The notes beneath the pieces are model-generated. The model did not search any database and had not been told where the DNA came from. It saw only the letters and a program-made list of their open reading frames with translations. The position numbers were made by a program, and so were the translations under genes. From Candidatus Spongiisociaceae bacterium (GTDB lineage: Bacteria > Actinomycetota > Acidimicrobiia > Spongiisociales > Spongiisociaceae), in NCBI GenBank assembly GCA_965262915.1, contig OZ253564.1, positions 4,960,001-5,024,000 of the forward strand: 64,000 bases of DNA, written 5' to 3'. Each line of letters begins with the position of its first letter. The first letter of the stretch is position 1. Shown here one piece after another: positions 16,879 through 38,871 of this stretch.

Positions 16879-17453
16879 CAGCATGTAGGGCGCGGTCACG
16901 AAATATGGCCACGGATCACACCAAAAGAGAAAGACAGTGAACCTGTAATACAACAACCGCCACTGGTCGCGTTGGGTGGTATAGGTTTCCGTATTGGCAT
17001 TGATCGCCGCACAGCATGGCCTTGGCATAGCCCGTGAAGAAGGTATCAGGTGTGACTGAACCGTGCCGGATCAAGCATCATTTTTGTGCATTGGAAGACA
17101 CTCCGCGTGGTGGAACACACCGTCGCTGACAAGAGGAGACCGCACGAACGTGGGTGGGTCCGGTTGGCTCGGGAGCTAGTCGAAAACTTCCGGACCCCCC
17201 ATCGGCGTTGCGTTCTATTGCGGTGACGCCCCGGAGCCCGGAGGACAGTCACCCACCCAAAAAAGGGGTTGGTTTCTCTATTGGATAGACATGGAAAAAC
17301 TTGTCTACTTGCCATGGATACACATACCCTCGATTCGACAGAGAACCTCTTCTTGGCGCCGATACCATTCGTTTCTGGTGGTACTCCCGACCATCCGTGG
17401 TAACTGCTCTAAGAGGACTTAGCGACAGCCACACATCTGATAAGGGGCTCTTC

Positions 17454-18933
17454 GATGCTCCTATGGTTGTCAAGTCGGTGATGGGGCCGGTTCGTGGGTT
17501 AGGAGCCAGGTCTGGTATTGGCTGGCGAGTTGGTGGTTGTGGTCTCGGCCGCGTTCGAGTGCGGAGATGCGGCTGGGGTGGGTTCCGAGCTGTTGGGCGG
17601 CCTGGGTGACGGTGATGTTGGCGTGTTGACGTCGGCGGCGGAGCCGGGCGCAGTTCGGGGTTGGTGGCGGGTTGGTCAGCAGTCGGTAGATCTGTGGGGC
17701 GATGTGCCGCTTGAGGCAGCGGATGATCTCTTTTCGGTTCTTTGCTTCCCCCTGGCGCCGTGCCACGTATTGGTTGGTGGCTGCGTCGTGGCGTATCCGG
17801 GTGGTAGCGCATCGGCCAGAGCGCGTTGTTGGCTTGGCGGTTACCTCCCCGGTTGAGACGATGCCGGATGGTCTGTCCCGATGATGCCTGGACGGGGCTG
17901 GCGCCGCACAGCGCCGCGAAGGACCGTTCTGATTTCATCCGTCCGGGGTTGTCGCCGGCTGCGACTAGCAGGGCGGCTGCGGTGTCAGGGCCCACACCTT
18001 TGGCGGCTAACAGAGCCGGGTTCGCCTCGGCGCAGAGGCGACGGATCTCGATCTTGAGTTCTGCGATTTCTGTGTCGAGGGCTTGGTATCGGCGGGCGAG
18101 GTGGCGTAGAGCCATCTTCGCGTACGCCGCAGTGGTCTGTGCTTCACCGGGACGCCAGCGGGCACAGACCCGAACCCGGGCCTTGAGCTTGAGGCCTCTG
18201 AGCTGGCGTTTTACCTGTTCAGGTGCGGTAACGGCCACAGAATGTATCTGGTTAGCGGCCTGGGTGCGGGCCTTGGTAGCCGAGCGGCGGGCCACCAACA
18301 ACATCCGTATGCACTCAACGGGGCCGTCACCAGATTTGGGAACTGCGGTAGCTTGCCCCGAGGCCGCTGCCCGAGCTGCCGCCTCGGCGTCGACGCTGTC
18401 GGTCTTGCCGCCCCGCTGGCGGCGTAGCTGCCGGTTCGGCCGGTTCACTTCTACCACCTCGATGCCCGCCGCCATCAGATAGCGGGCTAGGCCGGCGCCG
18501 TAGCTGCCGGTGCCCTCCACTCCTACCCGGAGCAGGTGCCCGTGGGTTCCGAACCACCTGGTCATCTGCTCATATCCGACCGGATCAGCCCCGAACGGTG
18601 CCGTTCCCAGCACCCGACCGGCGCCATCAACCACCGCCGCAACATGGGTATCACGATGGGTATCAACCCCACCGAACACAACCCGACCATCTTCTCCCAT
18701 GACACCTTCCTCCTCTGCGGGATAGAATCATTTCCGATCCCCGGACCCGGCAAGCGGTGGACAGGCCACTCACGGTGGAGGAAGATCAAAGCTCCTATAA
18801 GGTCACATCCGCCCCGGGTCAGGGGGTTACACCCCCAAGCTGGGAACAGGCCGACAGATCGATGAAAAGGCACAAAGCCAGATTTCAGTTGGGTCAGACC
18901 CGCCCTAGCCCAGGAACCTTCTAATTATGAGTG
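17454..18933 (-). mobile_element. IS110 family element A (DEDD recombinase 17470-18700, frameshift near 17810, C-terminal HTH)
   Basis: GGVDTH, GVEGTGSYG, KTDSVDA, RHRLNRGGNRQAN; right end TTGACAACCATAGGAGCATC; inserted in the ISL3-A 3' IR. Confidence 0.93.
18730..18915 (-). ncRNA. Putative bridge RNA of IS110-A
   Basis: Non-coding left end contains ACTGAAATC (= left target), TTCATCGAT (approx. revcomp of right target), ATAGGAGC (= left donor) and TGAGTGG (revcomp of right donor), in that order; boundaries approximate. Confidence 0.75.
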
Positions 18934-20583
18934 GATTTCAGTGGGGAGTGACGGTGGCCAATAGGTCCCAGTTGGGTTTCCCCGCGTAGAGAAGGGCCCG
19001 GATTCGGTAGTTCGCGAAGTTGGGTAACCCGAACGCGATCCGTTTGATCCTCTTGATGAGGTTGTTGAGGGCTTCGGTGGGTCCGTTGGTTACCTTCGAG
19101 ATGTGCCAGTTGGTGATCTGGGGGGTCCAGCGGGCGATGGTGCGACCCAACTTGTTGATCTCGGGTGGGCAGGATTCGTCCTGGAGGTCGTCCGCGAGCC
19201 CGACGGTGTATCGGAGAGCAAGGGCGGGACTGTCGACCCCGTAGATGCCCCGTACCGTTTCCTTCGCGTGCCAGGCGGTGCGCACTTCGCTGTGGGGGTC
19301 ACCAGCGTCGAGGAGACCACGCAGCCGTGTTTGACCGCGGTCGCTGATCCTCTCGGAAGCGGCGGTGAGGAGCCGCCGTATCCGATACAGCGGGTCATCC
19401 TTGCGGCCTCGATGCCCGAGGGTTTCGTTTTGGACCCTTCGTCGTAGGTCGTCGAGTCGCTGGTTGGCCAAGCGGATGACGTGGAAGGGGTCCGCTACCT
19501 GCACAGCGTTCGGCAACACCCGGTCGTACGCCTTCCGATAAGGCCCTGACATGACCCGGCACCGCCCAGCGGATCCCGTCGAGCCACTCGGGGGGCTGGG
19601 ATCGGAACCACGACACCGCGCTATCAGCCGTTCTACCACCGACTATGTCGATCAGGTGGCGGCCTCCCACATCGACGACAGAAGTGCACCAAACCTTGGT
19701 GCGCCACCGGCCTTTCCGCCCCAACAACGCTTCTTGTCGATACCCACAGCTCCGACCTCGCCTATCCGATCGGTGTCGGCCCCCAACAGGGCATCGCCCC
19801 AACGGACGACCTCGTTGTTCACCGTATGCCACCCACAACCCAACTCCGAGGCGACCTCGTCGACCGGGCGGCCCCGCCCACCCACCTGGACGGTCACCCA
19901 CCGAGCCGCTCTCGATGTCAACAACGCCCGTTCGGGACCAATCTTGGGGTCTTGTTCGATGAACGACCTGATCGCACACCCCGAGTTCGGACACGTCCAG
20001 CGCCGTTTCCTCCACCGCAGCCGCACAGGCCGTCCGAACGCCGGTAAATCCACTAACACCACACTCCGATAGCCTTTCGACCACACCGACCCGCCACATG
20101 CCTCACACACCGGCCGGGCCTTGCGGGACCCGATCACCACCTCCAACGGTGCACCCTCGCCCAAGTCGTTGATCCCGACCAGATCAACCTCGCCCAGGCC
20201 TACCAACTTCTCGCACATGCGCGTAGGATCACACTCCACAGGGGTCCTCCTGCCTCGGATGTCTGTTACCAACCATCCGATTATGGAGGACCCCCCATCA
20301 CTTCTGGTCGATTACGGCACCACCTAGCCGACCCCCTACTCCCCCCTCATTTCCGAAGAGCCTGATAAGGCATACCTGAGTTATCGGATAGCACCAAGAA
20401 ACTATAAGCCTGTAGATGCACATATAGCTCCACACACATATCTTCGCCATTAATAGGCTTACGACAGGTTTTGGTTAGCTAGTCAGGGGTTCTGCCATAG
20501 CCGTCCGCTCAGCGAATAGGAAAACGTCGAGAGGCCCGATTCCGGGGATGGATTCGAAGAGACCGGAGCCGGTTCCGCTGGTG

Positions 20584-21150
20584 GACCTCGGGCCAATACG
20601 AATACGAGTTGAGGGGACTGGAAACGGGCGTCGGGTACGACGTGCAGATACGGGCGGTCAACAGTGCGGGCGCCGGTCCATGGTCCGCCACCGAGGTGGG
20701 AACACCCCGTGCGGTGCCGGACGCTCCTGTGATCGGCTCGGTCGCCGGGATTTCCCGGGGGCTCACGTTGGGGTGGGGCGCTCCGGCGAGTGCAGGCACC
20801 GAGCCGATCACCGCCTACGACGTGCGGCATATCCGCAGCGACGCTGCGGACAGGAGCGATGCCAACTGGACCGTGCACCTCGCGGCGTGGAGGTCGGGGG
20901 TTCGGGAGACACGGTGACAGGCTTGGAGATCGGTACGGAGTACGACATGGAGGTTCGGGCGGTCAGCAGTGTCGGCGCAGGCCTCTGGTCAGCTACGCGC
21001 ATGGGGACGACGGCGCTCTCCGACGATGCCACGCTCAGCGTCCTTTACCCTGCCCGGCCTGCGGGTAAGCGCAGAGAACACCGGCGGGACGGGCAGCTAC
21101 ACCCTCGGCGGGCCCGACGCCGACCTCTTCGACCTGGACACCACAACGGG
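20584..21150 (+). pseudogene. Fragments of a fibronectin type III / cadherin-like surface protein
   Basis: GLETGVGYDVQIRAVNSAGAGPWS and GLEIGTEYDMEVRAVSSVGAGLWS (Fn3); SYTLGGPDADLFDLDTTTG (cadherin-like); in shifting frames. Confidence 0.75.
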
Positions 21151-21405
21151 CCGTTGCTCCCCACCGTTTTGCAGCACCCTCCTAAGCCTGAATCCATCGA
21201 TTCATGTTCCGAAGACCAGTCCTGACCAGGGCGGTCTCCGGGATCCACCACTCACAGGAAGTTGCTCCTCTTCCCAGGACCGAACCATCCTTACCAATAG
21301 CTATCGCCGCAGATCAGGAGGCATTTCCACCATATCTCCATGTCCGCTGCGCGCTCCCCATCGGTGGATTCAGGCTAAAGGGCCGTTCCGAAGTGGAGGG
21401 GCCGG

Positions 21406-22329
21406 TTAGTTGGTGGGCCCCGTGTTGGTTTGGGCTTGTTGGAGGATCCAGTGGCGGAGTGCTTGGACTTCGGGTCTTTGCCGGGAGGCCGCGGTGGTGA
21501 TGAGGCAGCAGCGTTCGGGGGTGTCGGCTTGGTGGTCGAGGACGGGGACCAGCGTCCCGCGTTCGAGTTCGCGGGCGATCAGCACGGGACGACCGATCAC
21601 AGCCCCTAGCCCGTGGGAGGCGGCTTCGATGACCATGCTGTACAGGCGGAAGCCCGAGGCCTGGACGAGGTCCGGTGCGGGCTGGTTCTGGCAGGCCGAC
21701 CAGTACGCCCAGTCGTTGTCCCATCCAAGATCATAGAGCAGGGGCCAGTCGTGAAGATCGGCCGGGCTGCGGGGCGGACCGCGTGCCGCTAGCAGGGCTG
21801 GACTGCACACGACGATCAGGTTCTCCTCGTAGAGGGTCTCCTCGATCAGGGTGTCCTCGCGTCGGCTGATCGGCCGCGGCGCCGCCGTCTCACCGGTGTA
21901 GGCGATCCAGACGTCGAAGTCGCGGCGCTCGGGGTCGACACCGCGATGGTCGGTCTCCAACTCGATCGCCATACCGGGATGGGCCGCCTCGAGGGCAGGC
22001 AGCCTCGGCAGCAGCCACTTCTCGGCCACGGCCTCCACCGACACGATCCGGATGCGGCTCGGACGGCGGCGTAGCCGTTCGGAGGCGCCATGGACCTCGG
22101 CGAGGATACGCTGCACCTCCTTCAGGTAGGCGCGGCCGCGGCGGTTGAGGCGCACACCTCTGCGGCAACGCTCGAAAAGACGCACGTCGAGACGCTCCTC
22201 GAGGGTCCGGATACGGTGGGCGACAGCCGCGGCGGTCACGCCTAACTCGGCCGCGGCGCGAGCGAAGCTCTGATGGCGCGCCGCTGCCTCAAAGAAACGC
22301 AGGCTGTCAAGCGGGGGCAAACGCATCAC
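21406..22329 (-). CDS. LysR family regulator, GcvA-like
   Basis: LPPLDSLRFFEAAARHQSF..AAAELGVT HTH; WLLPRL. Confidence 0.9.
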   Translation of the reverse strand: MMRLPPLDSLRFFEAAARHQSFARAAAELGVTAAAVAHRIRTLEERLDVRLFERCRRGVRLNRRGRAYLKEVQRILAEVHGASERLRRRPSRIRIVSVEAVAEKWLLPRLPALEAAHPGMAIELETDHRGVDPERRDFDVWIAYTGETAAPRPISRREDTLIEETLYEENLIVVCSPALLAARGPPRSPADLHDWPLLYDLGWDNDWAYWSACQNQPAPDLVQASGFRLYSMVIEAASHGLGAVIGRPVLIARELERGTLVPVLDHQADTPERCCLITTAASRQRPEVQALRHWILQQAQTNTGPTN

Positions 22330-22462
22330 GTCTCGTAACGTCGGGGCGGGATATGGAGAACTCGATTATGCCACACGGAACGTCGTGAACCGCCCACAGG
22401 TGAAGAGGATGTTCTTGTTCACTCAAGACGGATGTGCCGGGTTAGCTGTTCCATCGAACTCT

Positions 22463-22872
22463 AGGACAGTCACCCACCCAAATGTGGGGTTGGTTTCTCT
22501 ATCGGATAGACATAGAATAACTTGTCTATTGGGCATGGATACGCATCCCCTTGATTCGACAGAAAATCTCTTCCTGGCACTGATACCAATCGTTTCTGGC
22601 GGCACTCCCGACCATCCGTGGTAGCTGCTCCGGAGGATTAGCGACAGCCATACATCGGATAAGGCATACTTATATTATCCGATAGACCAAGGAGCATATG
22701 TCTATCTATAGACGCATAGTGCACACAAACAATCTCTCGATTGGTAAGCTGACAACAGGTGTCTCGAGCCGATCAGAGACGCTGCCATAGACCTCGGCCC
22801 AATGAGAATGCGGCGTAGTCGGGAGGCCCGATTCCGGGAATGGATTTGAAGAGACCGGAGCCGGTTCCGCTG
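22463..22872 (+). repeat. ~410-bp non-coding leader module, copy 2 (uninterrupted)
   Basis: Begins AGGACAGTCACCCACCCAAA, ends GAAGAGACCGGAGCCGGTTCCGCTGGT; homologous to the split copy 1. Confidence 0.85.
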
Positions 22873-23572
22873 GTAGGAGTATCGTGGCAAGCGGGACGCG
22901 ATGAGCACGCTGTCAAGCCTCCGGAGGTGGACGCCGACGGCACCCTCCCGCTCGCGAGGGCAGTCCCCGGCAGGGCGACCCGGTCGCTTGTTCTGGTGGC
23001 CATACTGGCAGCGACCCTGGCGGCTTGTGGAGACCGTGACGGGTCCACGCCGGGGTCCTGCCGCCCCATCGGGAACCACGGCGGTGGTAGCCGCACAGGA
23101 ACCGGAGCGAGCAACCGGCGCCGACCCACAGCCGACCACCACAGCAACCCCGACAGCCGAACCTGTAACCACGCCCGCTTCCACCGCACCGAAGTCCACA
23201 TCGGCCGCAAACGACGATCCCGACCAACCCTCCGCCGCTCCGAAGCCAGCGCCCGAACCAGCCACCGACACCGACACCTCCCAGGACCGCGTAACGAAGT
23301 CCACTGTGGCCGCAGGTGACGATCCCGACCAACCCTCCGCCGCACCACCAACGGCGGAACCGGCGCCCGAACCGGCCACCGACACCGACACCTCCCAGGA
23401 CCGCGTAACGAAGTCCACTGTGGCCGCAGGTGACGATCCCGACCAACCCTCCGCCGCACCACCAACGGCGGAACCGGCGCCCGAACCGGCCACCGACACC
23501 GACACCTCCCAGGACGGCGTGTCGACGGCTGGGTTGAGGGGGCCGCCCCCGGATCCGCCGCAGCCGGCGGGG
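22840..23572 (+). pseudogene. Lipoprotein N-terminus with Pro/Thr/Asp-rich repeats; frameshifted and truncated by IS3
   Basis: Lipobox LVLVAILAATLAACG in one frame and the repeat linker in another; ends at the IS3 IR. Confidence 0.6.
23213..23516 (+). repeat. 114-bp (38-aa) tandem repeat, about 2.7 copies
   Basis: Unit TDTDTSQDRVTKSTVAAGDDPDQPSAAPPTAEPAPEPA; starts at 23281 and 23395. Confidence 0.9.
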
Positions 23573-25708
<2,136 letters not shown>

Positions 25709-25714
25709 GGCCCT

Positions 25715-28367
25715 GCGTTATTTCACGGTTTCGATCGGTCCAAGTGGACGGCGGGCAATGCACAGGAGCGGTTGGGATTGCTGCCAGCCGCCCAGGAGCA
25801 CGTCCTGGCTCAGGAAGACGGCAAGGAACGCTGCCTGAATGCCGTGAGGGAACTGTCGCAAGCCTTCGCGCTGGCCGTGCCGCACCCGGAGACCTTTCGC
25901 ATCCGAGACGACGTGGGCTTCTTCTAGGAGACTGCTGATTTAGTCGCCTTGTCGGGACCTGGCCGGTTCGCGTTTTGTGTTTGTTGGTAGTATTGTAGGG
26001 GCTATGTTAGGACATGAAAGCTTCGACCGTGAGTTTCTGGACACAATGGATCTGTGGCATCTGGTTCCGGAAGGGTCTGTGTACCGGTTCTTGGCCGAGA
26101 ACCGCCGCCGCCTGTTCCCAGATGAGATGTTCTCCGATTTGTTCGGCCCGCGGGGCCGCCCGTCGATACCGGGTCCGGTGATTGGGGCGGTGATGGTTCT
26201 CCAGGCGTTGGAGTGCCTCTCTGACCGGGAAGCGATCCAGCGGCTACGCCGTGACATAGCGTGGAAAGCCGCGGCTGGTCTGTCGTTGACCCATGGGGGG
26301 TTCCACCCGACGGTGCTGACCTTGTGGCGAGCCAGGTTGCGTGCGAGTGACCGTCCTGAGCGTATCTTCGACGCGGTGCGCCAAGTTATGGATAGTTGCG
26401 GGGTGTTGGCTAACAAGGACCGTCGGGCCCTGGACTCGACCATTTTGGACGACGCGGTTGCTACCCAAGACACGGTAACGATGATCTCATCGCAGATAAG
26501 GCGTTGCCGCCGTCTGATACCGCAGGCAGCCGACCTGGTGCTGGTAGCCCATGACTACGAATCGAAGACGAAACCGTCCTGCGACTGGTCTGATCCCGAC
26601 AGCCGCTCGGAGTTGGTGGACGGCCTGGTAGGCGACGGTCTAGCGGTGATCGACACAGTCGAGGACATAAAGCTGGACCCCGACCAAGCCGACGCGGTAG
26701 GTCTGTTGGGAGTGGTTACGGGCCAGGATGTGGAACCGGACCCCGACCGGGAAGGCCGATGGCGGATAGCCCGGCGTGTGGCGAAGGACCGGACAATCTC
26801 AACGGTGGATACCGAGTCCCGGCACGGTCACAAGACCCGGACCAGCAAACGGGACGGGTACAAGGCCCATGTGGCTACCGAACCCGAAACCGGACTGGTC
26901 ACCGCCGCGGTTCTGACCGCTGCCAACACCACCGACGCCGACAGCATCGCGGATCTCGTTGCCGACCAACCCCCGGGCGCCGAAATCGTCGCGGATTCGG
27001 CGTACGCGTCCGGATCGGCGCTCGAAACGTTCGACGATCTTGGTCACACCCCGGTGACCAAACCCATCGTACGCAAACCCCACATCAAAGACGGGTTCCA
27101 CCGCGACGATTTCGATATCGACACCGGAGCCCGCACAGTCACCTGCCCCGCCGGGCACACCGCCCGCCTACGCCCCGGTGGTACCGCCCCGTTCGCGAAG
27201 CGGTGCAACGGCTGCCCCCTGCGGGCACGATGCACCACCTCGAAGACGGGACGCACCATCACAGTCGACAAACACCACGACCTACGAGCCGCGAACAAAA
27301 CAAGGTGGGCCAAAGACGAAACCCGCAACACCTACCGGAACTTGCGGCCGTCCGTCGAGCGGACCATCGCCTGGCTCACCCGCGGCAAAGCCAGACGCGT
27401 CCCATACCGAGGAATCATCCCCAACCAGCAATGGCTCACCACCAGAACAGCAGCCATCAACCTACGACGCCTCATCAACCTCGGACTCACCCACACCACC
27501 ACCGGCTGGGCCACCAACCCCGCCTAGAACCCCAAAAACCGGGACGCCGCCCCCAACCAACCCCGCCACCGCCAACACCGCCATCAACCCACCCAACACC
27601 ACCACCCCAACACACCAACACAGCCACCTCGCCGGCCCCGATAATCGGCAGGCTCCTAGGCGGTGAGGGCGGCCCTGTCGAAGCGGGCAACGGGAGAGGC
27701 GCGCCCCGAGGAGGATCTGGACCTGGCCGTGCGGCAGATCATCTCACGGGCGGTGGCCTCCGAAGGCGTGTTGGACATCTTCGCCGCCGCGGGACTCGGC
27801 AAGCCGGACATCTCGGTGCTCTCCGACGAGTTCCTGGCCGAAGTACAGGGCTTGCCTCAGCGCAACCTCGCAGTGGAGCTGTTGCAAAAGCTGCTCAAGG
27901 GGGAGTTGCATATCCGCCGTCGCAAGAACGTGGTGCAGGCGCGGTCCTTCGCCGAGATGCTTGAGCAGACCCTGCGCCGCTACCAGAACCGAGCGATAGA
28001 GGCGGCGCAGGTCATTGAGGAGTTGATACAGCTTGCAAAGGAGATGCGAGAGGCCAACGGCCGTGGCGAGGAACTTGGTCTCTCCGAGGACGAATTGGCC
28101 TTCTACGATGCGCTGGAGACCAACGACAGCGCGGTGCAGGTGCTGGGCGACGAGACCCTCCGCGCCATCGCTCGCGAGCTGGTCGACACCGTGCGGAACA
28201 ACGTCACTATCGACTGGACGCTTCGGGAGAACGTCCGCGCCAAGCTCCGGGCGCTGGTCAAGCGCATCCTGCGCAGGCACGGCTACCCGCCCGACAAGCA
28301 GGAGAAGGCCACAATCACCGTTCTTGAGCAAGCCGAGGTCCTATCGGAGGGCTGGGTTGTCGCATGA
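25715..28367 (+). pseudogene. hsdR: Type I restriction enzyme R subunit, C-terminal fragment (DUF3387 region), interrupted by IS1182
   Basis: [20 protein letters not shown]|[44 protein letters not shown]. Confidence 0.88.
25928..27655 (+). mobile_element. IS1182 family element copy 1; intact transposase (~26004-27527)
   Basis: IRs GAGACTGCTGATT/GAGCCTGCCGATT; CTAG TSD; LSDREA, ALDST, GYKAH, ADSAY, CPAG..C..CPLR..CT. Confidence 0.92.
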
Positions 28368-28540
28368 GACGCTCTGGGTATCCATCGCGCCTACACCACC
28401 AACCGGAACCTCAGCGTGAAGGTTCTTGATTTTGTCAAGTTTCGTGGGCCTAAAGGGACTGAATTGCGAACTTTTCGGTGGGCCGTCTCAATATGAAGGC
28501 CGGATCGTAGAACGCTACCTAGTTTCGAGGCGGGTTGCTA

Positions 28541-30325
28541 CTACTCATACCAGCCCGACCCAAATAGCAGTCCGTCATGCCGCACAATCCAAGTGTGCTT
28601 CTGACGGTTCTCGCCCGATTCCGGGTTGAGCAACAAATAGTCCACCCAATGACCCGCCTCAGTGGCGCTCCGTAAGTCGTCGCCATAGAAATACCCCGTG
28701 GCGTCCACACGGAGGCTGGGATCACGCCCTCGAAACTGCGGGTTATGGTGGGCTATCGTGTAGCCGTCTGGGTCGATGATGAAGACGTACCACTGGCCGT
28801 CAACACTCTCCTTGGTGTTGTAGTAGGCGACGGTCTCCTCCAGGCCGAGGGCGACGTAGAGGTTCATGGCCTGCTGCACGAAGGCCTTGGTGTAGGCGGG
28901 GGCGTCGGACTTGCCGGGGCCGCGTTCGTACCAGCCGGAGCCGAAGGTAATGCCGTCGTGGATCACCATCCAGGAGTGCTTGGTCTCCACAACGCCAGAG
29001 GCGGGATTGGCATAGGTGTAGTCGAACCAGGCGCCGTCCTGGTCGGCGGAGGCGGCGACGGCGGACCCGGTGGGGTAGGAGTTGGGTCCCAAAGCCTGGG
29101 AGATGTGCTTGCCCACCAGGTCAGGGTCGGGGGCATGAGCGACGATGGTCTGGTTCTCATCGCTCATGAAGACGTACCACTGGCCGTCAACACTCTCCTT
29201 GGTGTTGTAGTAGGCGACGGTCTCCTCCAGGCCGAGGGCGACGTAGAGGTTCATGGCCTGCTGCACGAAGGCCTTGGTGTAGGCGGGGGCGTCGGACTTG
29301 CCGGGGCCGCGTTCGTACCAGCCGGAGCCGAAGGTAATGCCGTCGTGGATCACCATCCAGGAGTGCTTGGTCTCCACAACGCCAGAGGCGGGATTGGCAT
29401 AGGTGTAGTCGAACCAGGCGCCGTCCTGGTCGGCGGAGGCGGCGACGGCGGACCCGGTGGGGTAGGAGTTGGGTCCCAAAGCCTGGGAGATGTGCTTGCC
29501 CACCAGGTCAGGGTCGGGGGCATGAGCGACGATGGTCTGGTTCTCATCGCTCATGAAGACGTACCACTGGCCGTCAACACTCTCCTTCGTGTTGTAGTAG
29601 GCGACGGTCTCCTCCAGGCCGAGGGCGACGTAGAGGTTCATGGCCTGCTGCACGAAGGCCTTGGTGTAGGCGGGGGCGTCGGACTTGCCGGGGCCGCGTT
29701 CGTACCAGCCGGAGCCGAAGGTAATGCCGTCGTGGATCACCATCCAGGAGTGCTTGGTCTCCACAACGCCAGAGGCGGGATTGGCATAGGTGTAGTCGAA
29801 CCAGGCGCCGTCCTGGTCGGCGGAGGCGGCGACGGCGGACCCGGTGGGGTAGGAGTTGGGTCCCAAAGCCTGGGAGATGTGCTTGCCCACCAGGTCAGGG
29901 TCGGGGGCATGAGCGACGATGGTCTGGTTCTCATCGCTCATGAAGACGTACCACTGGCCGTCAACACTCTCCTTGGTGTTGTAGTAGGCGACGGTGGCAT
30001 CTAGTCCTTCCGATTCGTATCTGCTGATGGCGTCTCTTACTAGGAACTTGGTGTAGTCGGCGGGCGTCGACTTGGGAGGTACGGTCGCCGTGGCATAACC
30101 CGTGTCCAACTGCTCCTGTATCTGCTCAATGAGAGACGCGACGGTGGCCTCATCCACGAGGGCGGGTGCGCCCGCGGGCGCTGGAGGTCCGGCTGGTCCG
30201 GGTGCGCCTGAGGAGCCCTGCGGCCCGGGAGGCCCCTGCCCCCCAGCGGGCCCGGCGGCTCCCTGGCAGGCAGAAATTGACAGGATAAGAGCGATGATCA
30301 AGATTACTCTGATTAGGGCGCGCAT
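28541..30325 (-). CDS. Lipoprotein with collagen-like linker and four tandem Cache-like domains
   Basis: Lipobox LSISAC; GPP/GPQ/GPA triplets; repeated unit YYN..ESVDGQWYVF..H..P....K(H)SW...HDG..FGSGWY resembles single-Cache folds. Confidence 0.8.
   Translation of the reverse strand: MRALIRVILIIALILSISACQGAAGPAGGQGPPGPQGSSGAPGPAGPPAPAGAPALVDEATVASLIEQIQEQLDTGYATATVPPKSTPADYTKFLVRDAISRYESEGLDATVAYYNTKESVDGQWYVFMSDENQTIVAHAPDPDLVGKHISQALGPNSYPTGSAVAASADQDGAWFDYTYANPASGVVETKHSWMVIHDGITFGSGWYERGPGKSDAPAYTKAFVQQAMNLYVALGLEETVAYYNTKESVDGQWYVFMSDENQTIVAHAPDPDLVGKHISQALGPNSYPTGSAVAASADQDGAWFDYTYANPASGVVETKHSWMVIHDGITFGSGWYERGPGKSDAPAYTKAFVQQAMNLYVALGLEETVAYYNTKESVDGQWYVFMSDENQTIVAHAPDPDLVGKHISQALGPNSYPTGSAVAASADQDGAWFDYTYANPASGVVETKHSWMVIHDGITFGSGWYERGPGKSDAPAYTKAFVQQAMNLYVALGLEETVAYYNTKESVDGQWYVFIIDPDGYTIAHHNPQFRGRDPSLRVDATGYFYGDDLRSATEAGHWVDYLLLNPESGENRQKHTWIVRHDGLLFGSGWYE
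28779..29994. repeat. 387-bp near-perfect tandem repeat (three units plus a partial one)
   Basis: ATGAAGACGTACCACTGG recurs at 387-bp spacing; one substitution seen near 29588. Confidence 0.95.
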
Positions 30326-31121
30326 TGTCAGATCTCCTGGTTGCGACGGGCGGCGCCGGACCTCACGGTGGCGAATACTGTCGCTGCGCCGGAAGTGTCC
30401 GAGTCAAACTTCAGCCCGCGGAAGCGCATACGCCGCTTCCAAGTCGTTGTTGCTCTGTGTGGCCCAATCCACGTACTCAAAATCGGAATGGGCGGTGGCC
30501 GTGCCCTCATCGGTTTTCCACGCGATAATGAAGTCATAAGCCGGTTGCCCGATCATATTGAGCGTGCTGAGCGTAGCATTCAACCGCCTCGCTATCACCC
30601 TGACGAAGTCACCCAGCGTGATGGTAGTAGTGGGGCCGGTCCATTCCGGTAGGAAACGGACCAAGGCCTGACCGGGTTCGGGCTGACCACGGATCCGCTG
30701 GTGAGCAACGGGAACCTCATCATCTCGGAGACGATCCGCACGCTGGTCCCGTGATCCTCGGGGTTGATCCGTTGCTCACGGAGCGCATCTGGGCGGATCT
30801 GGTTGTGAGGAGCCCTCATTACCTGATGACGCCGCCACTGCTCGCCATGAAGGCTTCCATCTTCTCAACCAGTGGGCGGATACCTTGGGGGGTGCGCTCG
30901 ATGAGGCCCAAGGCGATGAGCCGGCTTATGTCACGGGTCACGGTCTTGGAGGTCTTTCCGGCATAGGCCGCCGCCAGATGCGGGGTGAGCAAGGTGATCT
31001 CCGAGCGCGGCGTGGGATCGGACGGCGATAGAGAAAGCACCAACTGGCGTTGCCTGCGCCCGGCGGCCGTGTCGTGGCGGCGCATCGCCTCGTCGACGTA
31101 ACTCTGCCAGGCCAGCGCTAG

Positions 31122-34100
31122 GAGACTGCTGATTTAATCGGTCCTGTTTGTTGGTGGGTTCGCGTTTTGGGTTTGTTAGGATTATTGTAGTGGTATGCAG
31201 GGTAGTGAACGTGGTGATCGTGAGTTTCTGGACGCGATGGAACTGTGCGGGGAGCTGGTTCCGGAGGATTCGGTGTACCAGTTTTTGGCTGAACACCGCC
31301 GGCGCTTGTTTCCCGCCGAGATGTTCTCCGATTTGTTCGGTAGTGGACGGGGCCGTCCTTCAACACCGGGGTCGGTGGTAGCGACGGTGATGGTCCTCCA
31401 GGCGTTGGAGTGCCTCTCGGACCGGGAAGCGGTCCAGCGGCTGCGTCGTGATATAGCGTGGAAAGCAGCAGCGGGTCTGTCGCTGACTGATGGGGGGTTC
31501 CACCCGACGGTGCTGACGCTGTGGCGTGCAAGGCTGCGGGCCAGTGACCGACCTGAGCGTATCTTCGACGCGGTGCGCGAGGTGGTTTCCGCCTGTGGGG
31601 TGTTGGCGAACAAGGGTCGCCGGGCGCTGGACTCGACCATCCTGCACGACGCGGTTGTTACCCAGGACACGGTGACGATGATCTCATCGCAGATAAGGCG
31701 TTGCCGCCGTCTGATTCCCGAAGCGGCCGACCTGGTGCTGGTGGCCCATGATTACGAGTCGAAGACCAAACCGTCCTGCGACTGGTCTGATCCCGACAGC
31801 CGCTCCGAGCTGGTGGATGGTTTGGTCACCGACGGTCTAGCGGTGATCGAAGCAGTCAACAACGTCAAGTTGGATCCCGACCAGGCCGACGCGATAGGTC
31901 TGTTGGGAGTGGTGACGGGCCAGGATGTGGAACCGGACCCGGATAGGGAAGGCCGATGGCGGATAGCGCGGCGTGTGGCCAAGGACCGGACCATATCGAC
32001 GGTGGATGCCGAAGCCAGGCATGGTCACAAGACCCGGACCCGTAAACGGGACGGGTACAAGGCCCATGTGGCTACCGAACCCGTAACCGGGCTGGTCACC
32101 GCCGCGGTCCTAACAGCTGCCAACACCCCAGACGCCGACAGTATCGGGGATCTCGTTGCCGAAGAACCCCCGGGTGCCGAAATCGTTGCGGATTCGGCGT
32201 ACGCGTCCGGTGCGGCGCTCGAAACGTTCGACGATCTTGGTCACACCCCGGTGGTGAAACCCATCGTACGCAAACCCCACATCGAGGACGGGTTCCACCG
32301 CGACGACTTCTGTATCGACACCGGAGCCCGGACGGTGACGTGTCCCGCCGGGCACACCGTCCGTATACGCCCCGGTGGTACCGCCCCGTTCGCGAAGCGG
32401 TGCAACGGCTGCCCCCTGCGGGCACGATGCACCACCTCGGAGCGTGGACGGACCATCGCAGTCGACCAACACCACGACCGTCGGGCGGCGAACAAAGCAC
32501 GATGGGCCAAAGACAAAACCCGCAACACCTACCGGAACTTGGAGTTGCCCCGCTTTTTTGGACACTTCGCGATTTGTTATCCACAGGGTGGTTGTGGGCT
32601 CCTTTCGTAGTCTACGGGTGAGTGGTATCCGATGGCTGAGTGCCGCCGGTGGGGGTTGTAGAAGCCTTCGATGTAGTCGAAGACGGCGGAGCGGGCCTGG
32701 TTCCGGGTGGCGGAGCTGGTCCGGTCCAGGAGTTCGGTCTCGAGGGTGGCGAAGAACGACTCGGCTACTGCGTTGTCGTAGGCGTCGCCTCGGCGTCCCA
32801 TCGACACCGCGACGCCGGCCTGCTCGCAGCGGGCCCGGAACGCCCCCTTGAACCTGGTTTGGGAACCCCTATCAGAGTGGTGGATCACCCGGTCGGGTTT
32901 GCGCTGTGCGAGGGCCATGTCCAAAGCGTCGGTGACCAACGGTGTGGTCAGGTCATTGCGCATGGACCAGCCCACTACCCGCCGGGACCAGACATCGATC
33001 ACAGCAGCCAGGTACAGAAACCCCGCCTTGGTCGGTATATACGTGATGTCCGCAACCCAAAGGTGGTTTGGTCCAGTAGCGGTGAACTCTCTGCGTACCA
33101 GATCCGGTGCTGCCAGACGTTCGGGATTCTGCCTGGTAGTGGCCACTTTACGGCGGCGGTGAACCCCCTGGATGCGGGCTTGGCGCATGAGCCGGGCTAC
33201 CCGCTTGCGACCCACAGCCACCCCTTCGGCTGCTAGCTCTGCGTGGATGCGGGGAGCCCCATAGGTGCCCCGAGATCGGCTGTGGATGTCCACAATCTGG
33301 TCCCGCAGTGCCCGATCAGCCTGCTCCCGGGCGGACGGAGGACGCCTCAGCCATGCGTAGTAGCCGCTGGCCGAGCACACCCAGGAGGCTGCACATGCGC
33401 CGCACGGAATGGGAGGCCTGGTTGGCTTTCACGAACCCAAACGCCGCCTGGGGGTCGATCCGGTCTCCTCGGCGAACCAGGCCGCTGCTTTTGCCAGGAT
33501 CTCCTTCTCCTCACGGAGGATCCGGTTCTCCCGCCGCAGCCGGCGCAGCTCCTCGCGTTCGGCAGTCGTTAGCCCTTCGCGGCGGCCCTCGTCAACATCG
33601 GCTTGGTTCACCCAATTGCGGATCGTCTGGTCAGACGGTTCGAACTCCCGGCTCAGTTCACCAGGCGTCCGACCCGCCCTGACCAGGCGGACCATCTCCG
33701 CCCGGAACTCAGCCGGGTACGGCGCTCTTGTCTTCGGCATTCTTCTGAACACTCCTATCTGGGAACAATCCCAAGTCTTAGAGTGTCCACGAAAGCGGGT
33801 CAACCTCAACTTGCGGCCGTCCGTGGAACGGACCATCGCCTGGCTCGCCCGCCGCAGAGCCAGACGTGTTCCCTACCGAGGAATCATCCCCAACCAGCAA
33901 TGGCTCACCACCCCAACCGCAGCCATCAACCTACGACGCCTCATCAACCTCGGACTCGCCCACACAACCACCGGCTGGGTGCTCAACCCCGCCTAGAACC
34001 CCAAAGCCGGGACGCCACCCCCAAAGAACCCGGCCACCGAACCCACAAATACCCGTCCCAAACCCCCCCCAACCGACCCCACCACACCAAAACACGCCCC

Positions 34101-34148
34101 CCAACAGGCCAACACCCCCACCCCGACACCCCAATAATCGGCAGGCTC
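31122..34148 (+). mobile_element. IS1182 family element copy 2, interrupted by IS3
   Basis: Same IRs and CTAG TSD (31118-31121, 34149-34152); transposase closely similar to copy 1. Confidence 0.92.
32540..33808 (-). mobile_element. IS3 family element 2 (orfA 33429-33740, orfB ending at 32577)
   Basis: TG..CA IRs (TGGAGTTGCCCCGCTTT / TGAGGTTGACCCGCTTT); 3-bp TSD ACT; YGAPRI, WVADITY, DNAVAESFF. Confidence 0.92.
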
Positions 34149-34387
34149 CTAGATGTTGGGCCTTGATCCAATCCGACTGCTCCCCGAGACCGTCCACGAA
34201 CCCATCGAGTTCATAGGCGATGAACTCGACCGGCGACCACGGCCGTATCTGGCTCAACCGATCCAGTACCTGGTAGTAGCGGCCCGCGGGTCTGGTTGTA
34301 GTAGTTGGACAACAGGTGGACCGCGGGAGTGGGCACCATTCCCGATCCGGCAAGAAGGTGGAACTCCACCAGTCTCGCCGTACGCCC

Positions 34388-34431
<44 letters not shown>

Positions 34432-35400
34432 AGGGATGGATCCATGCGATGTAGAGGTGGGCCAGTAGCCCCTGCGTCAACACCCGGGTGAAGGCGAGCG
34501 GATGGTCCTCCCTAGCCTCGAAGTCGGAGCAGGCAAGCCAGTCGTACCGTCGATTGAGCAGGTGGGCGCAGTCTTGGGCGGGTGGTCCCCGGTACCGGCC
34601 GACCGTGACCTCGTACTTACGGATACGGCCTGGCCGGATCCGGTCGTCCCACTCCACATCGCGCAGAACCAGTTCGTTGTAGCTGCAGATGATCTCAGGG
34701 GTCAGCGTGAGATCCTTGCCGGTTCGGACCCGATCACCGATGATCTCGTAGGCGTCGAGCACGTTGCGTACCTCTTGTTCCAGGTAGCGACGCGAGGGCG
34801 GGAGACCGAGGGGACCGTCCAGCATCCTGGATACCTCGTCCTCGGTGAGCGTGTTGCCCTCGATGGCGGTGGTCGCATGCGCGCCCTTGCTCAAGTACGT
34901 CCTGTGCAACCGGTCGGCCACTGCCGGAACGAGGGGCGTCCCCGCGAGACGAGCGCATCCGGCCTACGACCTGCCGAACGACACCCACTCCTGCGGGCCG
35001 AACCCCGCAATGTCGAAGCCGAACGACAACCAAGGATGTGTCTCCTGATACCGGCAGTCGATTTTCGAGACCCTCCCCACATAGTAAGGGGTAATAGAGC
35101 TGTCAGACTAATTATACACAGGGTTTTGTCCCCTATAATGTCCCTCGGTAACGGTGCCGTTGTCGGCCACTAGTCAACCGGGATACCACCGGACTCCGGC
35201 TAAGCAGAATGACCGGCGGGCACCCGGCGACGCATTAGGCGCCTGAGATCTGGTTCACAACGATTGTGCGTTGAGACGTGACAGGAAGAAGTCAGCTACT
35301 ACTTGTCGTCACTGTAGCCGACAAGAGCACGCTAACACATGATCTATAGTGGACCAGTGCAACCCCCTAGGGGTAGGTAACGGTACTTGATTCAAAACCC

Positions 35401-35661
35401 GATCGCCTGTGGACCGTGGCCGAGGCCAAGGCGCATCTTTCCGAAATCCTGCGCCTTTCCGAAACAGAAGGACCCCAGCACATCGGTATCCGCCGACGCT
35501 TCGCCGTCGTACCTGCCGCAGCATGGTACGAGCAAACGGCGCCTCTCAAACCCCTCGGTCAGTGGCTCATCGAGAACGTCCCCCGAGGTGTAAACCTCGA
35601 GATCCCTGGTGATAGGCGATCGGCGCGAGAGATCCCCTTCACCGACAGCGAGCCCCGTTGA
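35401..35661 (+). pseudogene. Phd/YefM-like antitoxin; start codon uncertain or lost
   Basis: WTVAEAKAHLSEILRLSETEGPQ; overlaps the downstream PIN gene. Confidence 0.7.
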
Positions 35662-36062
35662 CGAGGTTTCTCTTGGACACCTCTGTGGTGTCCAAACTGA
35701 CGAAAGACACGCCAGACTAGCAGGTGATCGAGTTCCTGGCTACTCATGACGACTTGTGGTTGTCATCGATCATGATACATGAGCTGGAGTACGGCCTGCA
35801 TCTGCTTCCAGCCGGACACCGGCGCGATCGGCTTACAGCCATGATATCGGGCATCGTCTCGGCATATGCGGACCGCATCCTGTCATTGGACAGGACCGGC
35901 ACAGAGTGGGCCGCCCGCCTCCGGGCATATGCACGCCGGTCCGGATACTCCATCGACCTGGGTCATGTACTTATCGCCGGAATAGCTCGCGCCAATAATC
36001 TGGCGATCGCGACGCGTAATGTCTCTGATTTCCGAGCTTTGGGTGTCCTAATCATCGACCCT
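35658..36062 (+). pseudogene. vapC: VapC/PIN toxin with internal TAG; 3' end abuts ISL3
   Basis: FLLDTSVVS...PD*QVIEFL, ELEYG, IATRNVSDF. Confidence 0.85.
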
Positions 36063-36109
36063 GCGCGGTTTCGTGGGGTAGGGCGTTTCTGTTGTCGGTG
36101 TGGGGGTCA

Positions 36110-37571
36110 TGATGCTCCTATATTGTGCAAATCGGTTGTTGGGTGAGCCAGTGTTGGTATCGGGTAGCGAGCTGGTGGTTGTGGTCTCGGCCTAGCTCGA
36201 GTGCTGAGATGCGGCTGGGGTGGGTTCGGATAGCTCGGGCGGCCTCGGTGACGGTTATACCGGCTTGTCGGCGTTCGCTGCGTAGTTTCGCGCAGTTCGG
36301 GGTTGGTGGCGGGGTGGTGAGGATCCGGTAGATCTCGCGGGCGATGTGCCGTTTCAGGCATCGGATGATCTCGGTTCGTTTCTTGCCCTCCGCCTGGCGT
36401 CGGGTGACGTAGTCTTTGGTGGCGGCGTCGGTGCGCATCCGGGTGGTGGCTATCCGCCAGAGTGCGCTGTTGGCTTGCCGGTTGCCGCCCCGGTTGAGAC
36501 GGTGCCGAACTGTTCGGCCAGACGACGCTTGGACGGGGCTGGTGCCACACAGCGCAGCAAAGGATCGTTCCGATTTCATCCGCTTGGGGTTGTCGCCGGC
36601 GGCGACTAGCAGCGTGGCAGCTGTGTTGGGTCCGATACCTTTGGTGGCCAACAACGCCGGGTTGGCCCTGGCGCAGAGGCGTTTGATCTCGGTGTCGTGT
36701 TCTGCGATCTCGGCGTTGAGTGTCTGGTAACGGCGGGCTAGACGACGGAGAGCCAGCTTGGCGTAGCTGACAGAGGACTCTCCGCTGGGTCGGAACCGGG
36801 CGCAGACCCGGACCTGTGCTTTGAGTTTCATATCGCTTAGCTGGGCTTTTAGCGGCTCTGGGGCACCAACCAACAGAGAATGGAACTGGTTGGCGGCCTG
36901 GGTTCGGGCCTTGACCGCCGAGCGCCGAACTACTGTCAGCATCCGTATCCACTCGACCGGCCCATCCCCGGACTTGGGAACCGCGGTTGCTTCACCACTG
37001 AGAGCAGCACGAGCGGCTGCCTCGGCGTCGACGTTGTCGTCTTTGCCCCGCTGGCGACGTAGTTGCCGGTTGGGACGGTTCACCTCCACCACGTCTATGC
37101 CGGCCCCGAGGAGATGACGGGAGAGACCGGCGCCGTAGCTGCCGGTCCCTTCCACCCCGACCCGGCTGATCCGACCCTGCGACTCCATCCAGGCCACCAG
37201 TTGCGCATAGCCGGCGGGATCGGCTCGGAACTGGGCGGATCCCAGCAGGCGACCTGCGGTATCAACCACCGCCCCAACATGGGTATCCCGGTGTGTGTCC
37301 ACCCCACCGACCACAACCGGCTCCTCGGCTCTATCTTGGTCTGTCATGTGCTCACCCTTTCGCTGGCTGACTACAATTCCAAGTCCCCTGAGCCGGGTAG
37401 AGCGGCGGACAGAACACTCAAGGCGCAAAAGTCGAAGCTCCTATTAGGTCACCCCGCTCCCCGGTTCAGGAGTCCCAGCGGGGGCCAGGTCGACAGATCA
37501 TGACAAAGGCACCAAAGGCCAGTTACGAGGTGAGTCAGACCCGCCCCCGCCGAAGACCCGACCATTATGAG
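36110..37571 (-). mobile_element. IS110 family element B; intact recombinase 36118-37347 with C-terminal HTH
   Basis: GGVDTH, GVEGTGSYG, GKDDNVDA, ASSG..RHRLNRGGNR; right end TTGCACAATATAGGAGCATC; inserted at the ISL3-B stop codon. Confidence 0.95.
37375..37555 (-). ncRNA. Putative bridge RNA of IS110-B
   Basis: Same scaffold as IS110-A with guides CCTCGTAAC (= left target), GTCATGAT (revcomp of right flank), ATAGGAGC and TGAGTG (donor); boundaries approximate. Confidence 0.78.
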
Positions 37572-38871
37572 TGTTACGAGGATTCCTCGGGCGGCGTAGT
37601 TGTCGTAGTTGGTGAACCCGTGGGCGACGCGGCGTAGGACTTGGAGGAGGTTGTTGGTTCCTTCGATGGGTCCGTTAGTGGCTCGTCTGCTGGTGTGGTA
37701 GGCCAGGATTTGTTCTCCCCAGGCGATGATGGTGTCCACAACTTGGTGGTATTGGGGTATCTGTCCGGTGGCGTAGAGGTCGGCGAACCGTCCGAGCGCC
37801 TGGTTAGCTTGATCCGGGTTGTCGGCTTCATACAGTTGGTAGAGCTCTTGGAGAGCGTCCCACGCGGTTCGCAGGACGTGGATGAGCGTCGAAGAGCCGG
37901 TCGAGATACTTCTGGTGGGCTTCGGTGAGGTGATCGGCTCGGCGTAAGAGGGTAAAGCGGGCTCGGAACAGGTCCGGCTCGAACGTTGGGGGACGCAGCT
38001 GGGGGTCCCGGCGTTGTATCTCTCGTCGTACCAGGGTGAGGCCTTGGGTGAACCAGCGGACGACGTGGAACCGGTCGAGCACATGGCGAGCATCGGGCAG
38101 ATACTGTGCGATGGCTGCCTGGTAGGAGCGGGACCCGTCGGAGACGACTATCTCCACCTGGCGGCACCACCAGGCTCCTTGGTCTCTGAAGAACCTGGCC
38201 AAAGACCCTTTCGTGCGACCTGGGATCATCGCCAGGACCTTGCCGCTGTCACCACAGGCCACCACGGTCACATACCGATGCCGGCGCCGGATCGATGTTT
38301 CGTCGACCAACAGCACACGACACGGCCGGGCCCGGCGACGCTGCGCCACCCGCTCCGAGTGAGCTCTCACCAACCCCATGATCCGATGCCATCCCACCCC
38401 ATGATGGCGGCCCACCGCCCGAATCGACATCACCGTTGCGTCGGCGACTAGACGACGGGCGAAACGGCGGGTCAACCCGGCTTGGAACTCGGCATGGTCC
38501 TCAAGGTGACGCTCCCCACAGTTTCCACATTCGAACCGGCGGCGACGTCACACCAACGTTGTGCGGCGTCCACTCACCTCCAAATCCCGAACCCTCTTTA
38601 CCCTTCGGTCCCACACCCTGTAGCAGCGGAACCCACAATGGCGGCACCTCGACCACTCCCGGGCCGATTCGACTTCAACCTCAAGACGCTCAACAGAGTC
38701 GACCCCCACTCTCATCACGCGAACACCCGACAGGTGCAGCCGTACTTGCATAACATCAGACATCGAGGCCTCTCCCTGGATTCGGCGTTTTGGCTATTCA
38801 CCGATTCCAGCGAGGCCTCAACCCCATTCCAAGGATTTCAACCCACCCACCCCACAATTCCGCGCAGCCTC

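Follow-up and report, generated by a model that had tools for sequence, protein, structure and literature searches.

The 64,000-nt stretch analysed here (the window; Candidatus Spongiisociaceae bacterium, contig OZ253564.1, positions 4,960,001-5,024,000, assembly GCA_965262915.1) contains two insertion sequences (ISs) of the IS110 family, IS110-A and IS110-B, each of which interrupts an IS of the ISL3 family, ISL3-A and ISL3-B, respectively. We use IS110-I as the name of the lineage that comprises IS110-A, IS110-B, and their kin. Positions without prefix are those of the window, G000 denotes this 5.06 Mb genome, and other G numbers denote related genomes. In the predicted bridge RNAs, LTG and RTG stand for the left and right target guide, and LDG and RDG for the left and right donor guide. 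The two nested loci consist of the following features:

17438-17445, no strand: 8-bp target-site duplication of ISL3-A, right copy (minus-strand sequence CCTTATCA), bounding the ISL3-A::IS110-A composite
17446-17453, minus strand: outermost 8 bp of the right inverted repeat of ISL3-A (GAAGAGCC), severed from ISL3-A by IS110-A
17454-18932, minus strand: IS110-A, 1479 bp, subgroup A1, left end ACTCATAAT..., right end ...CATAGGAGCATC
18740-18917, minus strand: predicted bridge RNA of IS110-A (ends approximate), with LTG 18889-18881, RTG 18866-18858, LDG 18798-18791, and RDG 18773-18766
18933-20362, minus strand: ISL3-A body, with its left repeat GGCTCTTCGG... starting at 20362 and a TGA stop at 18940-18938
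20363-20370, no strand: left copy of the 8-bp target-site duplication of ISL3-A, preceding its left repeat; same 8 bp as the right copy
36059-36110, minus strand: terminal 52 nt of ISL3-B, starting with TGA-ACCCCC... and ending in a diverged right inverted repeat ...CCCACGAAACCGCGCAGGG, detached by IS110-B (right end judged by eye against the intact copy G000 689262-690612)
36111-37572, minus strand: IS110-B, 1462 bp, with an intact transposase gene (37347-36118, 409 codons, no internal stops)
37385-37557, minus strand: predicted bridge RNA of IS110-B (ends approximate), with LTG 37530-37522, RTG 37504-37497, LDG 37444-37437, and RDG 37420-37414
37573-38869, minus strand: ISL3-B body, transposase frameshifted, TGA stop lost to the IS110-B insertion

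In a self-comparison of the window, IS110-A and IS110-B share about 75-79% of their DNA sequence. Both encode the domains DEDD_Tnp_IS110 (PF01548; 87.1 bits in A and 85.2 bits in B, Pfam cut-off 29) and Transposase_20 (PF02371; 55.9 and 75.6 bits, Pfam cut-off 21.3), and the open reading frames flanking them are DDE_Tnp_ISL3 frames (143 bits) that also contain the ISL3 zinc ribbon and helix-turn-helix (HTH). Compared with solved structures, the IS110-B protein matches only ISCro4 (E 3e-11) and IS621 (E 5e-11), which is a distant homology, and the SSGR stretch of the transposase aligns with the ESGSS stretch of ISCro4 at the level of the stretch. By inspection, neither IS110 element has terminal inverted repeats. 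A long non-coding region lies upstream of the gene in both (the left end has 232 nt in IS110-A and 225 nt in IS110-B), and the gene reaches the right terminus. The IS1111-group (seekRNA) feature set was not found in IS110-A and IS110-B, in which no subterminal repeats are apparent by inspection either. The ISL3-A prey has terminal repeats starting with GGCTC... and generates 8-bp target duplications.

The transposase gene of IS110-A begins with an ATG at 18700 and is frameshifted near codon 296, the match being split into residues 7-296 and 293-402; IS110-A is therefore probably not autonomous. Its host copy of ISL3-A has an in-frame stop at about 19652 and is thus a pseudogene. In ISL3-B, the loss of the TGA lets the frame run about 41 codons into IS110-B. 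The window copy of ISL3-B has terminal repeats, and no 8-bp duplication was found around it. The IS110-B gene overlaps the -35 box described below and terminates within the terminal donor sequence, where its TAG stop falls into the terminal ATAGGAGC. The C-terminal tail of the IS110-B transposase (36118-36300, minus strand; residues ~381-415 of the frame 36118-37428) is absent from IS621 and has weak Pfam matches below the cut-offs, to HTH_31 (22.8 bits, cut-off 27) and HTH_3 (21.9 bits, cut-off 23).

Insertion boundaries, guides, and the predicted bridge RNA

The boundaries of the insertion can be read from a pair of filled and empty sites. The body of an empty ISL3-A (G000 311358-312790) is identical to that of a filled copy (4455389-4456812) at 1425/1425 positions, and each of them retains its own intact 8-bp duplications. 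The empty right end reads ...CACTGAAATCC followed directly by GATGAGCC, and the filled one ...CACTGAAATCC-ACTCATA...TAGGAGCATC-GATGAGCC. The A-type insertion is clean and lies within the right inverted repeat of ISL3-A, 8 bp away from its tip, and there is no target duplication, with a single C in common with the target. According to this comparison the inserted DNA spans ACTCATA to GCATC, and the C that precedes ACTCATA in A is part of the ISL3 repeat. Applied to the window, this boundary gives 17454-18932 for IS110-A and 36111-37572 for IS110-B. The initial annotation had proposed that removal of IS110-A would restore the right inverted repeat of ISL3-A, and the empty copy has exactly this sequence. 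It had also proposed that removal of IS110-B, which is located inside the ISL3-B stop codon and 52 nt from the ISL3-B terminus, would restore GTA ACA TGA; the uninterrupted CCTCGTAACATGAC is indeed present at two other sites in the genome, both of them ends of ISL3-B-type transposase genes.

All motifs that had been quoted for the two elements were found where they had been placed, and the correspondence of guides and flanks holds as first described. The guide ACTGAAATC of IS110-A (18889-18881, minus strand) equals the left flank CCCC-ACTGAAATC, and the reverse complement of TTCATCGAT (18866-18858) agrees with the right flank ATCGAAGAG at 7/9 positions. The remaining A-type copies carry ATCGATGAG instead, with a right-flank match of 8/9. 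In IS110-B, the guide CCTCGTAAC (37530-37522) equals the left flank, and the right junction ATCATGAC is exactly reverse-complementary to GTCATGAT (37504-37497).

A search for the left-end scaffold (GGTCTGAC-guide-TGGC...CCTTT-guide-ATCTGTCG) retrieved 31 left ends in the genome, for 30 of which both ends were found. Guides were compared with flanks in 38 copies, comprising the G000 copies and eight loci from four related genomes (G021, G002, G007, G001); a truncated left end (4427098), the duplicate loci L008, L009, and L029, and five G042/G043 loci, four of them without right end, were excluded. The score, out of 14, covers the 9 nt of the LTG and the five variable nt of the RTG against the flanks of the element, and two LTG registers were allowed equally for own and foreign flanks. 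The 38 copies fall into ten guide classes, at least eight of which are present in this genome. Own guides match own flanks at 12 or more of the 14 positions in 37/38 copies (mean 13.1). Guides scored against the flanks of other classes reach a mean of 6.0, and at least 12 in 5/1082 pairs, all between related classes. When the classes were permuted with one representative for each of the ten, none of 200000 permutations reached the observed 131/140, the best non-identity arrangement scoring 122. The match between guides and flanks is therefore far beyond chance.

It might be argued that the recombinase itself, perhaps via the HTH-like C-terminal tail, recognises the IS ends and that the guide matches are incidental. 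The tail is an additional stretch in comparison with the 328-aa chain of IS621, and its HTH_31 and HTH_3 similarities, below the Pfam cut-offs, would suit such a role. However, across the ten classes the two halves of the target loop vary jointly to suit unrelated flanks, with transposases that remain 69-84% identical. A protein reader could not follow such changes, and chance matches of this quality are confined to the few pairs of related classes mentioned above. Site choice by the protein is thus exceedingly unlikely.

The left ends of 13 elements from different classes and genomes align well, and their consensus, folded with the guide columns kept single-stranded, forms two stem-loops, each with an internal loop that contains a guide pair. 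Over the 40 pairs, 88.5% of the cells are paired compared to 37-54% if the partners are slid by 1-3 columns, a control that somewhat flatters the 88.5% because the structure was derived from the same 13 sequences. Both sides have changed in 13/40 pairs, and the covariation score was reached by none of 500 shuffles. The fold and the covariation of guides with flanks bear out what the initial annotation had supposed for this RNA. On the untrimmed alignment RNAalifold paired ACTCA with TGAGT; this was rejected as complementarity of donor and guide, not an RNA helix.

The donor guides, too, match the predicted junction, as had been claimed. The LDG ATAGGAGC (18798..18791 in A, 37444..37437 in B) equals the right-end terminus, and the RDG TGAGTG(G/T) is complementary to the start of the left end, ACTCA, plus the core. 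LDG and right-end terminus covary, with GTAGGAGC in class c642094 and ATAGAAGC in locus L012 of G001. The A-type circle junction predicted from these ends may read GCA-TC-ACTCATA or GCA-TC-CACTCATA. It would bring together the hexamers TTGACA-17-CATAAT in A and TTGCAC-17-CATAAT in B, which are conserved across guide classes and predicted from the sequence to be a promoter. The spacing of 17 nt agrees with the initial annotation for B; its 18 nt for A become 17 with the boundary given by the filled and empty sites.

In loop order and strand rule the predicted RNA agrees with IS621-type bridge RNAs, in which loop 1 binds the target and loop 2 the donor; there, the 5' sides pair with 8-9 nt of the bottom strand and the 3' sides with 4-7 nt of the top strand (Durrant et al. 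2024). By analogy, the element would excise as a circle, and the joining of its right and left ends would assemble a sigma-70-like promoter (the -35 box TTGACA or TTGCAC in the right end, 17 nt, and the -10 box CATAAT in the left end), the parts of which are seen in the DNA and from which expression is expected. The resulting left-end transcript of about 180 nt would fold into the two stem-loops with internal loops that the covariation supports. On the 5' side of loop 1, the 9-nt LTG has the sequence of the DNA left of the crossover and would pair with the bottom strand, and on the 3' side the RTG (five variable nt plus a constant GAU) would face the top strand right of the crossover, to which it is complementary; this relation of guide and target is evident from the covariation over the ten guide classes. 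In loop 2, the LDG corresponds to the right-end terminus and the RDG is complementary to ACTCA, as seen in two covarying changes. Judged from the homology to IS621 and ISCro4, the DEDD/Ser recombinase would swap strands at a dinucleotide NC with an invariant second base C. The outcome would be a simple insertion without duplication, as found in the filled and empty pair.

Guide classes and their targets

The guide classes found in G000, and their insertion sites, are as follows:

A-type, 17 copies: 16 in the ISL3-A right repeat and one (3665077) at a poorly matching site
c541975, four copies: in the ISL3-B terminal repeats, at either end, with the IS110 right end toward the ISL3 interior
c2009260, two copies: about 34 nt inside the ISL3-B left end
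B, one copy: in the ISL3-B stop codon
c642094, two copies: about 60 nt before a transposase with the domains rve and Mu-transpos_C_2; two intact sites exist
c715300, three copies: two in the 3' part of another Transposase_20 gene, one elsewhere at 12/14
c962732, one copy: outside any recognised IS

From its domain make-up we take the target of c642094 to be an IS21-like element. For c962732, a location in an IS630-like end was considered and rejected, as a second copy of that IS puts the insertion about 65 nt outside. Altogether, 23 of the 30 complete G000 copies are located in ISL3 ends, and four guide classes aim at them, one at ISL3-A and three at different sites of ISL3-B. The initial annotation's suggestion of a single IS110 lineage with guides reprogrammed to different ISL3 sequences thus holds over the ten classes and 38 copies. 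ISL3 is a prey as it had proposed, but not the only one, given the insertions into the IS21-like end and into another IS110-family transposase gene. Six of eight classes aim at ISs, and since repeated DNA makes up 7-11% of the genome this is far above random expectation. Intact targets of the B, ISL3-B-repeat, ISL3-B-left-end, and IS21-like classes are present in the genome. The A-type copies comprise two subgroups, A1 and A2, which differ by 19% yet share identical guides; the transposase frame is open (418-421 aa) in 12 A-type copies, the window copy not being among them.

The census covered 41 relatives, 29 genomes of the family, and five plasmid records. The B-type and two more classes recur at the same kinds of sites in other genomes of the family. 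In G007, an ISL3-B-type transposase (84% identity, 414 aa) has a B-like element precisely at its end, in G002 an element lies in an ISL3-B-type right repeat, in G043, which belongs to a different genus, in an ISL3-B-type left end, and in G042 in an IS21-like end. More distant relatives with 46-58% identity are found on plasmids (five of 2006 matching records were examined). The element of Rhodococcus erythropolis pREL1 shares the scaffold and directly follows annotated pieces of an IS30-family transposase; its right guide agrees with the junction at 9/9 positions. The R. pyridinivorans element is located about 45 nt after an IS256-family gene, and guides could be parsed there and in pREL1. A Streptomyces plasmid element lies between IS1182- and ISL3-family genes, and two of the five plasmid elements have no IS neighbour. 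The scaffold pattern was not matched in the Streptomyces, Paenarthrobacter, and Pandoraea plasmid records. In G021, one or more additional copies of the first ~51 nt of the left end directly precede a full element (L003:2150-2264 and L005:2150-2264), each stopping exactly at the end of the left guide, which looks like half-site recombination at the guide-coding DNA.

The 44 right ends of the ISL3-A family comprise 16 occupied ends, 16 empty ends with the cognate 18-mer, one empty end with a 17-mer, seven ends with AAACGC, and four that differ otherwise. IS110-I thus occupies 16/32 cognate 18-mer ends and 0/11 variant ends (p 0.003), and an open ISL3-A frame of at least 430 aa is found in 3/13 occupied versus 15/23 empty copies (Fisher p 0.035); as the copies are related, both tests overstate the difference. 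Identical ISL3-A bodies are found only among empty copies, in groups of seven and two. In a tree of the 36 full-length bodies, from which partial copies were excluded, occupied and empty copies are intermixed, and one occupied copy falls within a group of identical empty ones. In ISL3-B, IS110 either splits the repeat or removes the stop codon.

This distribution has to be reconciled with the possibility that IS110 entered ISL3 only once and that the composite was then spread by the ISL3 transposase or by homologous recombination, the guide match being inherited. The 8-bp ISL3 duplications around the whole composite are what a moving composite would leave, and one pair of composites is alike in both parts (ISL3 distance 0.03, IS110 distance 0.014). 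However, occupied and empty ISL3-A copies are intermixed on the tree, one occupied body is identical to seven empty ones, and no two occupied bodies are identical. IS110 and ISL3-A distances correlate weakly (Mantel r 0.19, p 0.055, 13 pairs): IS110-A2 copies at most 0.7% apart occupy ISL3-A bodies that are 6-12% apart, and ISL3-A bodies 1.2% apart hold IS110 copies 19% apart. In addition, with only 8 bp of ISL3 to the right of IS110, gene conversion lacks a homology arm on that side, and the binding repeat of the ISL3 transposase is split. Joint movement is therefore very unlikely, and the alternative of a hitch-hiker, which the initial annotation had offered, is not supported. The interspersed tree, the weak correlation of distances, and the missing second homology arm indicate repeated independent targeted insertions, and the targeted insertions are both repeated and recent. 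Two cases of nesting are seen outside the window. At G000 4462318-4466853, a c642094 IS110-I in an IS21-like end is broken by an ISL3-A that itself has an A-type IS110-I in its right repeat, and at G000 4175387-4178303 the reverse is found, with an ISL3-A (4176829-4178267) near the right end of an A-type IS110-I.

An ISL3 copy whose repeat is split by the insertion is probably immobilised. It could be imagined that the host keeps the lineage for disabling active ISL3 elements, and that an arms race and not just the safety of the landing sites shapes the guides. The contrast between cognate and variant ends (including the seven with AAACGC), the scarcity of open frames among occupied copies, and the restriction of identical bodies, which are a sign of recent transposition, to empty copies would fit. 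On the other hand, the relatedness of the copies inflates these counts, older ISL3 copies would gather IS110 insertions and decay without any causal link, and IS110-I with its about 30 copies is itself a burden. The occupancy and frame data fit immobilisation and possible escape and prove neither, and we consider a service to the host unlikely. With slightly less reserve, but still doubtfully, one may think of a running contest between RNA-guided transposons and their prey, in which the guides have been re-aimed at abundant IS termini (one site in ISL3-A, three in ISL3-B, the IS21-like element, and another IS110, with the second lineage IS110-II described below homing into the donor-guide DNA and the right terminus of IS110-I itself), the IS110 elements act as natural programmable suppressors, and guides turn over by an arms race and not by drift. 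If so, each insertion would silence the copy whose repeat or gene it splits, and the ISL3-A ends with AAACGC for AAATCC would be escape alleles. Most likely, the ends of abundant ISs simply are harmless, repeated landing sites.

Assessment of guided insertion and neighbouring elements

Taken together, IS110-A and IS110-B very probably belong to one actinobacterial-type IS110 lineage that moves by IS621-type bridge-RNA-guided recombination and whose guides have diversified, most classes homing into the ends of other multicopy ISs. Several observations weigh against this reading or parts of it. The copy at G000 3665077 matches its flanks at only 6/14 positions, and the window copy IS110-A has a frameshifted transposase. 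The single c962732 copy and the G021 class are outside recognised ISs, the latter lying between ordinary genes at L003, the one locus with identified flanking genes. The preference for ISs may in part be due to ascertainment, because only multicopy targets allow many copies. An Rfam search of 15000-40000 in E-value mode did not detect a bridge-RNA family, the sole match being a chance miRNA model with 27 bits against a cut-off of 79. The 24 sequencing runs consist of assembled contigs, and in X3, X4, X5, and X18, over 35900-37800, no joint skips IS110-B and no contig joins its ends. Finally, in the classes A, c642094, and c962732 the 9-nt LTG match stops one base short of the crossover, and the cores of donor and target differ at their first position.

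The last two points can be described more precisely. The LTG match reaches the crossover in all other classes, and the offset in A and c642094 is certain from intact sites and not accounted for by the canonical register. A single ISL3-A right end (G000 306070-306086) has the 17-mer ACTGAAATCGATGAGCC, which is one C shorter than the other cognate ends, is unoccupied, and, in the canonical register, suits the left as well as the right A-type guide. Possibly it is the scar of an excision. As the general A-type target the 17-mer was rejected, because the 16 empty ends carry the 18-mer, in seven cases with bodies identical to an occupied copy. The same one-base offset of the IS21-like class against its two intact sites also counts against it. 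Concerning the cores, the left junction keeps CC, AC, or TC of the target and the right junction always has TC, from which it follows that donor and target differ at the first base. The RDG bases beside ACTCA track the left junction, being GG for CC and GT for AC. This would be consistent with guides adjusted to the strands of the product, in the manner of the handshake pairing described by Hiraizumi et al. 2024, and also with a single-strand insertion as proposed in a 2026 preprint.

Two observations on the sequencing contigs concern the left end of IS110-B. Contigs of X3 and X5 that end at 37572 continue as an ISL3-B-type 3' end without IS110; this continuation differs from the window locus, so that these ends derive from other ISL3-B copies or other organisms. 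A contig of X18, which we guess to be RNA, ends at 37562, just past the -10 box; contigs cannot show transcript starts and we draw nothing from it.

A second lineage, IS110-II (~1.49 kb, 427-aa frame, CT core), is present in 11 copies, located at L046:410-1950 (G000:C1:3638520-3640060), G000 4420419-4421959, 287283-288795, 290128-291615, and seven more sites. Seven copies adjoin tandem heptads (GACACCT/GGCACCT), four on both sides and three on the right only. The DNA for the donor guide (LDG) in IS110-I left ends is interrupted by three copies, and an IS110-I right terminus by one, between CATAGG and AGCATC. The target-loop guides of IS110-II differ among its three groups of sites and track the flanks.

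Further repeats are found within the window. The related plus-strand frames at 25977-27527 and 31195-32610 (516 and 471 aa; DNA repeats of 81-87% identity) are probably two further IS copies, and the repeat at 26056-26146 encodes a peptide resembling the start of a DDE_Tnp_1/DUF772 frame elsewhere in the genome (IS5/IS1182-like). Tandem repeats of 387 bp (28773-30074, 3-4 copies, 98-99% identity) and 114 bp (23136-23525, three copies) lie inside long open frames, and one of 380 bp is present in two copies at 54088-54797. Dispersed repeats are a 168-nt sequence at 17242-17409, just past the ISL3-A::IS110-A composite, and 22463-22630 (88% identity), and a 74-nt sequence at 7336-7409 and 58714-58787 (92% identity).

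Known IS110 systems and implications

IS110-I shares with IS621 and ISCro4 the DEDD and Tnp domains, the long non-coding left end, the lack of terminal inverted repeats, and, as predicted from the sequence, a promoter split across the junction of right and left end. The two internal loops have the same order, target first and donor second, with 5' sides in the same sense (9 nt and 8 nt) and complementary 3' sides. A nearly invariant second core base and a variable first one are reported by Hiraizumi et al. 2024, and IS110-I agrees with this. In contrast, the proteins are only distantly similar (E about 1e-11), the core is NC with TC in the donor where IS621 has CT, the cores of donor and target differ at the first base in most classes, and three classes have an LTG register that is off by one base. 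Compared to IS621, the transposase is ~80 aa longer, with its C-terminal tail, and its gene extends into the terminal donor sequence. IS621 uses repetitive extragenic palindromic (REP) elements as targets, IS110-I the ends of other ISs.

Homing of IS110 elements into the inverted repeats of another element is already known. IS1383 is reported to have the inverted repeats of IS1384 as its target (Muller, Lauf and Herrmann 2001), the former being assigned to the IS110 and the latter to the IS5 family in a table of PMC5141477. This resembles the situation here in that an IS110-family element has another IS's inverted repeat as its specific target, but there the prey is an IS5-family element in Pseudomonas with apparently one target, whereas here, in a genome of Acidimicrobiia type, ISL3 and other families are hit, a given prey by several guide classes. 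IS4321 and IS5075 are reported to target the inverted repeats of Tn21 (Partridge and Hall 2003), nearly 900 insertions having been reported for the IS4321 target. These seekRNA elements are likewise RNA-guided and insert in a specific orientation into a terminal repeat of another mobile element, but IS110-I differs from them by its 232-nt left end upstream of the gene and by having no apparent subterminal repeats. ISPpu9, ISPpu10, and ISPa11 (IS110/IS1111) also home into repeated, presumably harmless sequence, which is reported to be a host REP repeat and not another transposable element.

What the present elements add is the radiation of guide classes onto IS ends within one genome. Among the papers listed in full-text searches on the two families, no title or abstract reports ISL3 ends as an IS110 target, and the supplementary target tables of Durrant et al. 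2024 might include them; the term ISL3 is absent from Siddiquee 2024 and from a 2026 preprint on IS110 expansion. The novelty is smaller than the initial annotation had suggested, given the known IS110 elements that target inverted repeats of other elements.

Bridge recombinases are under development as programmable genome-writing tools, and there is little documentation of natural changes in their guides. With about 30 copies in one genome, and filled next to empty sites, this lineage represents a natural reprogramming series. Three of its features are relevant for design: the two halves of the target loop are exchanged as a pair, donor and target need not agree at the first core base, and the left guide tolerates a register shift of one base. 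In an IS-rich genome such as this one, RNA-guided elements reside mainly within other transposons, which bears on how IS loads are restrained and on how nested ISs should be read in assemblies.

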